A stretch of 24,000 bases of DNA from Bacillus sp. REN3 (GCF_017912555.1 NZ_JAERSD010000033.1:5445-29444), one strand, 5' to 3'. Shown: positions 1,717 to 4,102, numbered from the stretch's first letter. The notes: generated by a model not told the origin, from the sequence alone. Numbers and translations: made by a program.

Positions 1717-2451
1717 ATGAGTGTTTCTTTTGATGAGCTTTTGGCTGCGGCTATTGAGGGGCCTTCTGGTCGTTTTTGTTTTTATAAGGCGTTGGTGGAG
1801 CTTGAACTGTTCGTCATTGGTTCGGTGGAGGATGATGAGACTTTGAATTTGAAGTACATCGAGGAGGGTGGGGAGCTTATGCTGCCTGTTTTTACGAGCC
1901 GGGAGAAGTTCGAGGAGATTTTCAAGTCTGAGTATCCATATGTAAGGATTCAGGCGGAGCTCCTGTTGGAGATGGCGGGGACGGACATTCCATGGCTGGT
2001 GAATCCTTTTACCGGGATGAGCAAGAAAATCATCCGGGAAGAGCTTGAAACCTTGAAGGATGGCCGGATCCTGCATTATTTTTTCGAACAGCTTAGCGAC
2101 GAGGAGAAAGAACAGATCCTGACTGAGCAAATGGAAGAACTTCCTGAGGAGGTAATGGATGTGCTGCGAACATGTCTTAAGAAGTTCCCTTCTGTTAAAA
2201 AAGCCTACCTGGTAAACTTGTTTGATCCTTCTGCTGCTGGTCCGGCTTTCCCGCTTCTGGCAGTGGAGGTGGAAGCTGTGGAAGAAGGGTTGGTCAGAGA
2301 ACTTTTTGGCGCTATCAATCATCAGGCAGAGCCGCAAATCGAAGTCATGATTCTCGACGAGGGGTTCCCGCTGGCCGCCTCCATTGTCGAGCACACCAGG
2401 CCATTTTATTTTCGTGAGTCGGTTGATGAGTTAAGGACATTGTTTGATTAG
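1717..2451 (+). CDS. SseB-family protein (244 aa), toxin-associated, copy 1
   Basis: FDELLAAAIEGPSGRF.FY.ALVELELFVIG, LPVFTSREKFEEIF and IVEHTRPFYFRE line up with my recollection of E. coli SseB (LEDLLEKAATEPAHRPAFFRTLLESTVWVPG, IPFFTSLEALQ, ITEHIAPFYERR). The TAG stop lies inside the RBS of the next gene. Confidence 0.85.
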   Translation: MSVSFDELLAAAIEGPSGRFCFYKALVELELFVIGSVEDDETLNLKYIEEGGELMLPVFTSREKFEEIFKSEYPYVRIQAELLLEMAGTDIPWLVNPFTGMSKKIIREELETLKDGRILHYFFEQLSDEEKEQILTEQMEELPEEVMDVLRTCLKKFPSVKKAYLVNLFDPSAAGPAFPLLAVEVEAVEEGLVRELFGAINHQAEPQIEVMILDEGFPLAASIVEHTRPFYFRESVDELRTLFD

Positions 2452-2462
2452 GAGGTCGACGG

Positions 2463-3671
2463 GTGTCAAAGATTGAGATTAAAATAAATCAGGTCAAGGC
2501 GGCGAACAGGGATTTAGTCAATCTGTCCTCACGGGTGGAGAATGAGGAAAACCGGATTTCTTCCCTCAGGAGCCAGGTTGATGGCCGGATCGCCAGCCGC
2601 CGGAACATCGGAAGGAACTTGAGTGAAGCAGCCGCAAAGGCGAGGGCAATTGATAAAAAGCTGGGTAAACTGAATCAATTCGTTGATGCATCGATGGATT
2701 TATATGTGAAGGCGGATAAGAAGGCGGATCGATTCAGAGAACCGGATAAGAAATCGATCTGGGAAAAGATCGCAGACGGTTTTAAGACAGCGAATGATAT
2801 AAGGAAAGGATTCCGCAAGGGAGTTGCAGAGGCTCTTTTTTCAACAGTTGAAGGTATTTGGAATGCCGTCACCCATCCGATAAAGACGGCCAACGGAATG
2901 ATCTATGCCATCGGCCATCCCGTGGAAACCGCCAAAAGCATCTGGAAGTCCATCTCCGACTCCTGGAAGAACGATGTCATAAACGGCGATGCCAAAAGCC
3001 GTTCTGAATGGTTCGGCCGCGCCGTCGGTGAAGCCGCCCTGGCGATTGTCGGAACAAAAGGCGTCGACAAGGCCGTGAAGGTGGCCAAAGGGGCAAGGGT
3101 TGTGAAGGAGGATGGAGGAGCTAGGGTTGTTAGGCCGGAGACTATTGAGAAGAAGGATGGCGTGGGCAGGGATGGAAAATCTGTGACCCCTGAGACGAGA
3201 AATAGCGGAGTAGGTGTTGGAACAAAGAAGGTTCCGCAGAGGATAGACAGTAAAGAGGTAAAGGGGGACAATGGTAGTAAGGGTATAGTTAAAACTAGAC
3301 CTTCTTGGAGACAGTCTGAAATTGATGTAGAGAAGGATTTCCCTGATTATAACGCTCAAAAGTCATTTAAAGATGGTAAAGAAGTACCTTATGGAGAAAA
3401 AGGTAGTTCTAGACCAGATTTGTATCGGACTGGGCATAGTATTGAGGTGAAAAATTATATAATTACTACTCCAAGCGGACGGAGTAGATTGGTTAATAAT
3501 GTGTCAAAACAGGTAGAAAAAAGATTAAGTGATTTGCCTAATGGTACAAAACAGTCTGTTATAATTGATATTAGAGGACAAAGTGTATCAGATGAGATAG
3601 TAGAAGAATTGTATGAAAAGATTGTGAATAAAACAAATGGTAAAGTAGATATAAGGTTTAAAACAAATTGA
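2463..3671 (+). CDS. polymorphic toxin: short helical N-terminus + PT-TG-type pre-toxin domain + PD-(D/E)xK (restriction-endonuclease-fold) C-terminal toxin
   Basis: GTG start 7 nt after GGAGG. The first 270 codons are paralogous to 11845.. and 17976... GEAALAIVGTKGVDKAVKVAKG resembles the pre-toxin TG region ahead of the B. subtilis YeeF toxin domain (from memory). After G-D-N (3264-3272) the sequence turns AT-rich and unique: SEIDVEKDF...RPDLYRTGHSIEVKNY gives an E / PD / ExK signature. Confidence 0.85.
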   Translation: MSKIEIKINQVKAANRDLVNLSSRVENEENRISSLRSQVDGRIASRRNIGRNLSEAAAKARAIDKKLGKLNQFVDASMDLYVKADKKADRFREPDKKSIWEKIADGFKTANDIRKGFRKGVAEALFSTVEGIWNAVTHPIKTANGMIYAIGHPVETAKSIWKSISDSWKNDVINGDAKSRSEWFGRAVGEAALAIVGTKGVDKAVKVAKGARVVKEDGGARVVRPETIEKKDGVGRDGKSVTPETRNSGVGVGTKKVPQRIDSKEVKGDNGSKGIVKTRPSWRQSEIDVEKDFPDYNAQKSFKDGKEVPYGEKGSSRPDLYRTGHSIEVKNYIITTPSGRSRLVNNVSKQVEKRLSDLPNGTKQSVIIDIRGQSVSDEIVEELYEKIVNKTNGKVDIRFKTN

Positions 3672-3685
3672 TTGAGGTGAGAAGA

Positions 3686-4102
3686 ATGGCTGTGGGCTTT
3701 AAGGTGAAATATTATTGGTATCAAGTCGGGCACGGCGATTTCTTACACTCTTTTTTCTCTACAATAAGCTATCATTTAGAACAAAATGGATGGGGCACTG
3801 AATATCCTTTTTTGTTAAATGAACTGTATAATGGGAAACTTGAGAATAAGAATATTGATAGCGCTATATGCGAATTAGAAGCAATTAAAAAGGAATTACA
3901 GAAATTTAGTCCATCACAAGTAGTATGGGATATTGAAGACTTATCTAAGAGACCGCCTTGGGGAGATAATATTAGTAAAGATATTACAAACTTATCTAAT
4001 TATTTTATAACAAGTGAGGGCGAGGACTTAATAGATATATTAATGAAAGCATTAGAAAAGGGACAAAAAACTAATTCGGATGTTTTTATAGAAAGTATAT
4101 AA
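3686..4102 (+). CDS. cognate immunity protein candidate for the nuclease toxin
   Basis: Lies immediately downstream of and overlaps the toxin stop region. I prefer the start at MAVGFKV (RBS gaggtgag) because the paralogue at 13600 starts MAVGLLV. Shared blocks: GH.DF.HSFFSTISYHLE..GWGT.YP and P.QV.WDI.DLS..PPWGD.IS. Confidence 0.7.
   Translation: MAVGFKVKYYWYQVGHGDFLHSFFSTISYHLEQNGWGTEYPFLLNELYNGKLENKNIDSAICELEAIKKELQKFSPSQVVWDIEDLSKRPPWGDNISKDITNLSNYFITSEGEDLIDILMKALEKGQKTNSDVFIESI

Follow-up and report, generated by a model that had tools for sequence, protein, structure and literature searches.

SseB-family proteins as candidate chaperones or adaptors of polymorphic toxins with a WXG100-like hairpin in a toxin island of Bacillus sp. 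REN3

Background

What does a protein of the SseB family do directly in front of a polymorphic toxin gene, three times over in one stretch of Bacillus DNA? The question is raised by 24,000 nt of DNA from Bacillus sp. REN3 (this whole stretch is referred to below as the window, with positions counted from its first letter), in which an SseB-like gene and a toxin gene recur as a pair, for instance in the cassette at 1717–4102. The function of the SseB family has been unknown since the serine-sensitivity phenotype of E. coli. A first-pass annotation, made from the sequence alone, had suggested for the SseB-like protein a role as a dedicated chaperone, adaptor or export factor of the toxin, or else as a pre-export neutraliser. 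On the evidence of sequence and genomic context presented here, we judge it probable, on balance, that the SseB-like protein would be translated jointly with the toxin and act as its dedicated chaperone or adaptor in the cytoplasm, serving the constant N-terminal region (a helical hairpin and a TG domain), and that the toxin would be exported by a type VII secretion system (T7SS).

Systems composed of a T7SS polymorphic toxin, a chaperone and an immunity gene are already known as a kind. EsaE (DUF5081, EspG-like) is the globular chaperone of the T7SSb toxin EsaD in Staphylococcus aureus (PMC10653861), and the Ltc proteins (DUF4176) are globular chaperones of the LXG toxins TelA and TelB in Streptococcus intermedius; according to the 2025 paper on Ltc, EsaE was the sole T7SSb chaperone proposed before it (PMC12478183).

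Results

Three SseB–toxin gene pairs in a polymorphic toxin island

Listing and translation of open reading frames (ORFs) gave three gene pairs, each consisting of a 244-aa ORF followed 11 nt further on by a GTG-started ORF (Table 1). The junction GATTAGGAGGTCGACGGGTG, in which the TAG stop of the first gene lies within the ribosome binding site (RBS) of the second, was letter-identical in 3/3 copies, just as the first-pass annotation had described it. The three SseB paralogues aligned without indels and differed pairwise at 27, 27 and 28 of 244 residues (about 27 substitutions had been counted by hand between copies 1 and 2). The ratio of non-synonymous to synonymous substitution rates (dN/dS, Nei-Gojobori) was 0.23–0.25 for the shared toxin N-termini and 0.28–0.31 for the SseB paralogues, the latter range indicating purifying selection on all three of them.

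Nucleotide identity between the cassettes reached 88–93% over 1.66–2.27 kb (self-BLAST, E = 0), far above chance, and homology stopped near positions 3280, 12662 and 18797, at about codon 272 of the toxins. Beyond this point Pfam recognised no domain in toxin 1, Tox-GHH in toxin 2 and Ntox50 in toxin 3 (2.2e-25), which agrees with the earlier description of some 270 common codons followed by unrelated domains. A constant N-terminus, a toxin domain at the C-terminus that varies, immunity genes and orphan toxin/immunity cassettes are thus all present, and the stretch is a polymorphic toxin island, each cassette of which is an operon of an SseB-like gene, a polymorphic toxin gene and an immunity gene. 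Each toxin had been credited with an immunity gene of its own; this stands for the Imm70 gene after toxin 1, while those of toxins 2 and 3 are assigned by position only. A terminator-like hairpin was detected by terminator scan at 4119–4147, 3′ of Imm70.

The limits of both genes in copies 1 and 2 and of the SseB gene in copy 3 were reproduced as first given. The toxin gene of copy 3, annotated as 17976–19175, is not intact: its codon 86 is TAG (18231–18233) where copy 2 has AAG, which leaves the copy-3 toxin as either a pseudogene or a split gene (17976–18233 + 18336–19175). The duplication shared by copies 1 and 2 runs ~ 690 nt further upstream (1029–3280 versus 10401–12662), and includes an 87-aa membrane ORF, which can be placed outside the functional unit because it is frameshifted in copy 2.

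Family assignment and predicted fold of the SseB-like protein

Both Pfam SseB domains scored above their gathering cutoffs (PF07179, 41.7 bits against 21; PF14581, 49.3 bits against 22.5) and both were present in 29/29 members of the subfamily, so that the original assignment to the SseB family holds. The NCBIfam equivalog model of E. coli-type SseB (NF008624) gave 61.4 bits against a cutoff of 295 (E 6.8e-17), which makes the protein a homologue, not an orthologue, of E. coli-type SseB. It is nevertheless a true homologue of the E. coli and Klebsiella proteins, with 26–29% identity over ~ 170 residues (tblastn E = 4e-7) and the same two Pfam domains, although the enterobacterial gene sits after pepB and the isc operon, without a toxin or T7SS. 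When plasmids were searched with SseB by tblastn, the matches were confined to enterobacterial sseB on chromosome-like records, and a further search for homologues, started from a divergent SseB alignment, brought no new distant SseB proteins among the matches listed.

The AlphaFold model of the SseB-like protein has two alpha/beta domains, at a predicted local distance difference test (pLDDT) score of 86.6. Foldseek comparison with the PDB returned nothing under E = 1e-3; the C-domain resembled small alpha/beta modules (TTHA0547, MNT), and the only whole-length match near the top was to Tic22 (4e6z; rank 3), a weak one (E = 3e-3, template modelling score ~ 0.2). Neither EspG nor type III chaperones were among the top 50 matches. 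The secretion-chaperone-like fold that had been surmised for SseB is therefore echoed, weakly, by Tic22, and not by EspG or type III chaperones. The profile and fold comparisons gave neither a DUF5081 (PF16887) match nor an EspG-like fold, and by all tests run the protein is outside the EsaE, EspG and Ltc families. Sequence and profile searches of the PDB with SseB, toxin and hairpin yielded noise or coiled-coil matches only.

A prediction that bears on this comparison was made in 2022 by the Aravind group, who with HHpred described the SseB domain as a Tic22-like peptide-binding chaperone in conflict systems (PMC9503650). Tic22 is also the whole-length structural match near the top here; however, that match is weak, and the context in their study was one of systems centred on ADP-ribosyl-glycohydrolases, not of T7SS toxins. 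As a separate observation, a gene of 6,783 nt from the actinobacterium Rathayibacter toxicus has been annotated as ‘T3SS SseB-like protein’ (PMC7143919), suggesting that SseB domains are also fused into very large proteins.

Architecture of the toxin constant region

Alignments divide the region shared by the toxins into three parts. Residues 1–95 comprise two long predicted helices ending in the invariant tyrosine of Y-x-x-A-[D/E] (LYVKAD in the window toxins); in these alignments Y81 is invariant and D/E85 conserved, giving the toxins the YxxxD/E motif of T7SS substrates. Residues ~ 110–216 form a helical, partly hydrophobic TG-motif pre-toxin domain with an invariant GTKG, and residues ~ 217–272 a Gly/charge-rich linker. 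Modelled alone, the toxin N-terminus was helical at a pLDDT of 35.8, a low confidence that makes it unusable for fold comparison; EsaD without its partners was likewise reported as not modelled confidently (PMC10653861).

The name PT-TG, under which the toxins were first listed, had to be given up, as the PF14449 model had no match at E ≤ 10 on the window toxin N-termini, at E ≤ 1 on 10 homologues, or among the precomputed Pfam annotations of 70 homologues; judged by alignment, the resemblance to PT-TG is positional and motif-level only (GTKG). The reported absence of an LXG domain of ~ 200 aa was upheld. PF04740 had no match on window toxins or scanned homologues, hhalign against one LXG domain gave a probability of 1.3%, and the label ‘LXG domain-containing’ that UniRef attaches to two homologues could not be reproduced.

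Similarity to WXG100 proteins was detectable at a low level. The Pfam WXG100 model aligned with one homologue over its full length, below threshold (E = 0.018, 15.7 bits against a cutoff of 27.3). With an ad hoc hidden Markov model built from five WXG100 proteins of the loci, residues 3–96 of nine hairpin toxins were colinear with WXG100 positions 4–99 (E 3e-5 to 5e-3, in a search space of 2,897 ORFs), and no unrelated ORF matched. There was no signal when the hairpin profile was compared by hhalign with a single WXG100 protein, and the hairpin has neither an LXG motif nor the W-x-G turn motif, its turn reading D-x-x-I-x-x-R-R-N-I without a conserved Trp. Taken together, the toxin N-terminus is likely an un-annotated targeting hairpin of the WXG100 superfamily, with weak homology.

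An exhaustive profile search placed 764 clusters (50% identity) in the hairpin family at E ≤ 1e-3, and 133 at E ≤ 1e-10. Of the 143 top-ranking sequences, 97 exceeded 250 aa, and almost all of these had the hairpin at their very N-terminal end; 38 were stand-alone proteins of ≤ 150 aa, some ending exactly at Yxxx[D/E]. This motif was found in 134/143 representatives and the TG domain in only 12/143. Besides occasional toxin domains, Pfam recognised almost nothing in the representatives, and the hairpin family has no Pfam model. One stand-alone hairpin may be seen arising in the window itself: the nonsense codon of toxin 3 directly follows YxxxD and leaves an 85-aa hairpin ORF, which is annotated as a protein in the databases (identical to P0114). 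This may represent a route from a toxin gene to a small Lap-like partner, or mere decay or contig-end truncation. Small Lap partners (DUF3130, DUF3958 or YwqH-like) were not found upstream in the window cassettes, and a toxin combining LXG and TG domains at another locus (L004) has YwqH-like and DUF5344 genes upstream.

The TG domain also occurs behind a bona fide Pfam LXG domain in Rummeliibacillus (hmmsearch 2.5e-28). In Paenactinomyces guangxiensis (L022, 10001–11176; P0041) it was observed behind a hydrophobic, signal-peptide-like N-terminus MGKYFCPFAILILLTFVGIGIFGLGEVHAA, with neither hairpin nor LXG. As it follows a hairpin, an LXG domain or a signal-peptide-like start, TG would act as a modular pre-toxin domain, and a single TG module is apparently combined with more than one export route.

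In toxin copies 2 and 3, TG domain and linker are 99–100% identical (12205–12600 versus 18336–18730; 2822–3222 in copy 1), whereas over the SseB gene and hairpin the same two copies are only ~ 90–95% identical, having diverged like any other pair. Such near-identity beside a diverged SseB gene and hairpin suggests that recombination within the constant region swaps warheads; for copies 2 and 3 it speaks for a recent event, either gene conversion or the displacement of a warhead through recombination.

Conservation of the SseB–toxin pair across genomes

Scanning genomes with the subfamily profile revealed a toxin with hairpin and TG domain 11–27 nt after the SseB stop in 16/16 loci, all from different species and retrieved with patterns of this same subfamily, so that the count reflects conservation within the subfamily and not enrichment across all SseB proteins. 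SseB identity at these loci was 41–77%, with Mesobacillus, Sutcliffiella, Fredinandcohnia, Neobacillus, Bacillus timonensis and Cohnella among the hosts. The same order and range of spacing of SseB and toxin were found at three further loci (L002, L024 and L028), and in at least 11 other assemblies, metagenomes among them, homologues of both proteins were encoded on one contig. Across these genomes one SseB type is paired with at least seven unrelated warheads (TNT, deaminase, Endonuclea_NS_2, AHH, GHH, Ntox50 and unknown), which implies that the link of SseB is to the constant portion of the toxin and not to the warhead. The proposal of a dedicated, operon-encoded partnership between SseB and toxin, for which the window offered three copies, is thus borne out beyond it, and chaperone or adaptor is the best reading of this partnership.

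Hairpin toxins in type VII secretion loci

The export route of the toxins had at first been left unexplained. Type VII secretion is now the likely one, because the toxins begin with a WXG100-like hairpin bearing Yxxx[D/E] and because hairpin toxins are encoded inside loci of the T7SSe type. The listed components of T7SSe (TseA-K, Bacillota) are EssC with FHA, a ubiquitin-like protein, two WXG100 proteins, a Ser/Thr kinase, a PPM phosphatase and DUF6382+FHA (Garrett, Higginson and Palmer 2024, PMC11217815), and this set is carried by the hairpin-toxin loci of Cohnella and Clostridium. In Cohnella sp. GCM10027633 (L003) the gene order is EssC (FHA + FtsK), YukD-like, two WXG100, kinase-vWA, PP2C, pseudokinase, a 640-aa protein, a 97-aa hairpin, SseB, toxin, an immunity array and a second toxin. 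Clostridium neuense (L025) has no SseB, and its order is PP2C, DUF6382+FHA, EssC-FHA, ubiquitin-like, two WXG100, a 104-aa protein and the hairpin toxin. At a third locus (L028), a WXG100 gene lies 3.6 kb downstream of the SseB/toxin pair, at the contig end. Linkage to T7SS genes was accordingly seen in these homologues and not in the window; T7SS toxin genes are commonly scattered away from apparatus genes (PMC11217815). The description of T7SSe differs from the present loci in that it names neither an SseB-family component nor hairpin toxins as substrates, its candidate substrate being a reverse lipase. From the hairpin and these loci we infer that the toxins of Bacillus sp. REN3 would likewise leave by a T7SS.

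The 97-aa protein of the Cohnella locus (8882–9175) is a stand-alone hairpin homologue (hmmsearch 8e-20, motif YRETD) directly before SseB, with no counterpart in the window cassettes, and is likely a Lap-like co-secretion partner. We also considered whether the Cohnella system is a T7SSc with SseB as its TscG. This was ruled out, as T7SSc EssC has no FHA and TscG no InterPro domains, whereas the Cohnella EssC has FHA and SseB is known to InterPro and Pfam. The gene set of the Clostridium neuense locus, with its EssC-FHA, does not fit T7SSc either.

Other features of the window

The remaining features, together with the coordinates of the three cassettes, are collected in Table 1. The segment in front of the YezG-like gene appears to be the C-terminal tail of a nuclease, as read from a frame translation ending VKVKITPNYSGDSKRPVSFNIKYKI. 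The deaminase cassette opens with the linker shared by the toxins (3141–3293 homologous to 14066–14218 by self-BLAST).

Table 1 Features of the 24,000-nt window of Bacillus sp. REN3
Feature	Position	Strand	Evidence and remarks
SseB-family protein copy 1, 244 aa	1717–2451	+	Pfam SseB 1.5e-10, SseB_C 5.8e-13; candidate toxin chaperone/adaptor
Coupling junction copy 1	2446–2465	+	TAG 2449–2451 within AGGAGG RBS, 7 nt before GTG 2463
Toxin 1, 402 aa	2463–3671	+	Hairpin 1–95, TG domain ~ 110–216, linker ~ 217–272, C-terminal ~ 130 aa without Pfam match
Imm70 immunity protein of toxin 1	3683–4102	+	Pfam Imm70 2.7e-53; ATG at 3683, mechanical ORF from TTG 3668
Orphan module: presumed tail of decayed nuclease toxin (~ 4177–4306), then YezG-like immunity gene (4307–4834)	4177–4834	+	Pfam YezG-like 5.7e-51
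SseB-family protein copy 2	11099–11833	+	ORF, alignment with other copies
Toxin 2, 449 aa	11845–13194	+	Hairpin, TG domain and linker as in toxin 1 (hairpin and TG profiles match by hmmsearch), followed by Tox-GHH (HNH/EndoVII) nuclease, Pfam 1.7e-11
Putative immunity protein of toxin 2, 115 aa	13198–13545	+	Position only; no Pfam family match
Orphan Imm70	13600–14016	+	Pfam 7e-58
Promoterless toxin C-terminal cassette, BURPS668_1122-type deaminase	14054–14701	+	Pfam Toxin-deaminase 1.2e-42
Imm3	14722–15093	+	Pfam 1.8e-39
SseB-family protein copy 3	17230–17964	+	ORF, alignment with other copies
Toxin 3, disrupted	17976–19175	+	Hairpin ORF 17976–18233, TAG 18231–18233; TG, linker and Ntox50 open from 18336
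Putative immunity protein of toxin 3, 114 aa	19189–19533	+	Position only; no Pfam family match
Fourth toxin fragment, hairpin end and TG start	20993–21283	+	TG profile 2.5e-24; BLAST 89–91% to the three copies
DDE transposase of insertion sequence cutting off fourth toxin	21256–21867	-	Pfam DDE_5
Palindromic element copies	1015–1120, 1592–1697, 5075–5170, 9520–9615, 10398–10496, 10982–11086, 15195–15300, 17125–17215		

Self-BLAST, alignment and consensus folding revealed a palindromic element of ~ 85 nt, present in eight copies, with arms GGGGACGGTTCTC and GAGAACCGTCCCC. Three of the copies (1592–1697, 10982–11086 and 17125–17215) end 12–20 nt before the SseB starts of copies 1, 2 and 3, and two (1015–1120 and 10398–10496) mark the upstream border of the copy-1/copy-2 duplication. 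The element matched no Rfam family and showed no compensatory stem changes; it may be an element resembling repetitive extragenic palindromes or miniature inverted-repeat transposable elements, a boundary of recombination, or an insulator or terminator. An Rfam search of the entire stretch gave no match, and the yield of a promoter scan was no higher than the shuffled expectation.

Between the cassettes lie genes for a WYL/WCX regulator, a DUF1643 protein, a member of the endonuclease/exonuclease/phosphatase family and a protein of 162 aa that matches Adhesin_P1_N (5260–6339, 8325–9188, 9633–10391 and 16168–16656), and none of the genes at these four positions is T7SS-related. An RHS-repeat protein fragment without its N-terminus (21942–23525) adjoins the insertion sequence, and the small ORF after this fragment continues past the end of the stretch.

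Discussion

The mechanism that we propose starts from a toxin composed of a hairpin with an export-type Yxxx[D/E] motif, the TG pre-toxin domain, a disordered linker, which would be the site of warhead swaps, and a variable toxin domain that the downstream immunity protein would neutralise. Since its stop codon lies inside the toxin RBS, the SseB-like protein would be made in stoichiometric coupling with the toxin. It would bind the constant N-terminal region, by way of the hairpin and/or the hydrophobic TG helices, keep the toxin soluble and secretion-competent in the producer cytoplasm, may pass it to an EssC-type ATPase, and probably remains in the producer cell. The physical binding, the segment bound and the retention in the cytoplasm are what we infer from gene order and sequence.

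Several known systems are comparable in outline. A close parallel in layout is the EsaE-EsaD-EsaG locus, where a globular cytoplasmic protein of ~ 250 aa is likewise encoded just upstream of a polymorphic toxin whose helical N-terminus serves targeting and is followed by a pre-toxin domain and an exchangeable C-terminal toxin, with the immunity gene after it; in both systems the partner tracks the constant N-terminal region, and the locus can sit at the 3′ end of a T7SS cluster. In contrast to EsaE, the partner here is composed of SseB_N and SseB_C, without a DUF5081 match and without EspG in the Foldseek top 50. Further differences are that the hairpin measures ~ 90 aa, unlike the Pfam LXG domain of ~ 200 aa, that the window cassettes are without EsxB/C/D-type genes, and that the apparatus near SseB/hairpin loci, where seen, is T7SSe-like and not T7SSb.

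The Ltc proteins are similar in being toxin-specific chaperones encoded immediately before the toxin, with several paralogue/toxin pairs per genome, and toxins with an additional region placed between targeting and toxin domains, as in the toxins here, depend on them for stability (PMC12478183). Family and fold are unrelated, however, and Ltc binds a disordered amphipathic helix of the middle domain, whereas the TG middle domain is conserved and predicted to be helical. In mycobacterial T7SSa, EspG is also a globular chaperone for helical YxxxD/E substrates with conserved N-termini and variable C-termini (PE-PPE), but it shares no sequence or Foldseek similarity with the SseB-like protein, belongs to another phylum and subtype, and serves a heterodimer rather than a single chain.

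A number of observations weigh against the chaperone or adaptor reading. The 16 loci speak for one subfamily only, and the linkage, once described as invariant, is strong without being so: toxins with hairpin and TG domain were found without a neighbouring SseB in Radiobacillus, and two extra ones in Cohnella, where the single SseB may serve several toxins in trans. No SseB was found at loci of the wider hairpin family (Clostridium, Ureibacillus) or with LXG-TG toxins or the signal-peptide-TG protein, so SseB is not a general requirement of the hairpin or the TG domain. Enterobacterial sseB has no toxin linkage, and no T7SS gene is present in the window or, in 15/16 genome-scan loci, within 10 kb of the pair.

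Could the SseB-like protein instead leave the cell with the toxin, as a structural partner within the exported complex in the manner of Lap or EsxBCD? T7SS substrates usually leave as heteromers with partners encoded upstream, and the product of the upstream gene could take the slot of the small Lap-like protein that the window cassettes lack. Yet the known partners are helical hairpins of ~ 100 aa, whereas SseB is a 244-aa alpha/beta protein of two domains without a helix-turn-helix of the Yxxx[D/E] type, and the more natural Lap equivalent is the 97-aa hairpin that precedes SseB in Cohnella; we consider co-secretion unlikely. The other early suggestion, a pre-export neutraliser or additional immunity factor of a generic kind, acting whatever the warhead, would profit from the tight coupling, which ensures synthesis alongside the toxin. 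It is nonetheless highly improbable, because one SseB type meets many unrelated warheads (nucleases, deaminase, NADase, Ntox50), each with an immunity gene of its own (Imm70, Imm3, Imm59, YezG). Moreover, the orphan toxin/immunity cassettes at 13600–15093 do without SseB, and toxins that lack a neighbouring SseB still have an immunity gene.

The absence of T7SS genes from the window and from beside most loci, sub-threshold Pfam LXG and WXG100 results and the lack of hhalign signal against single LXG or WXG100 sequences would also suit toxins that are not T7SS substrates at all and are released by lysis, by an unrecognised system or through TG-mediated contact, with SseB serving that route. We regard this as improbable, given that hairpin toxins directly follow WXG100 genes in two phylogenetically distant T7SSe-type loci, that the toxins combine colinear WXG100 similarity with Yxxx[D/E], and that distance from the apparatus genes is common for T7SS toxins. 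It is less probable still that the adjacency is lineage-specific hitch-hiking, in which an SseB gene with some other cellular role was taken up a single time in front of a mobile toxin cassette, at its 5′ end, and has been copied with it since. The toxin-free enterobacterial location by pepB and the isc operon and the bordering of the cassettes by repeat elements, with duplication as units, are compatible with such a capture; however, in Bacillaceae and Paenibacillaceae pairing and short gap are kept even where SseB identity falls to 41%, purifying selection acts on all three paralogues, even beside a decayed toxin, and TG domain and linker were homogenised independently of SseB, so that the unit was not simply copied wholesale.

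Extending the chaperone or adaptor reading to the family as a whole is a step that we take tentatively, as possible rather than probable: the SseB family would consist of substrate-binding secretion chaperones, and its Bacillota branch would be the third globular T7SS chaperone or adaptor family, after EspG/EsaE and DUF4176, serving the WXG100-like hairpin of T7SSe-type substrates with its 764 clusters.

Conclusions

A full-text literature search found no paper that connects SseB-family proteins with LXG toxins, with polymorphic toxins or with type VII secretion, and a 2026 survey of PT-TG makes no mention of SseB. This agrees with the first-pass annotation, which knew of no description of the partnership; neither the hairpin as a targeting domain nor SseB as a chaperone family appears to have been described so far.

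If the proposed role is true, the SseB family would gain its first testable molecular function, with a lead for E. coli SseB, and type VII secretion would gain a chaperone or adaptor family. A widespread N-terminal targeting hairpin missed by Pfam and NCBIfam would be defined; as existing models miss it, many Bacillota toxins are annotated as ‘hypothetical’ and without an export route. The hairpin toxins would also be candidate substrates for the recently described, unstudied T7SSe systems, and the three paralogous chaperone/toxin pairs in a single genome represent a natural specificity experiment.

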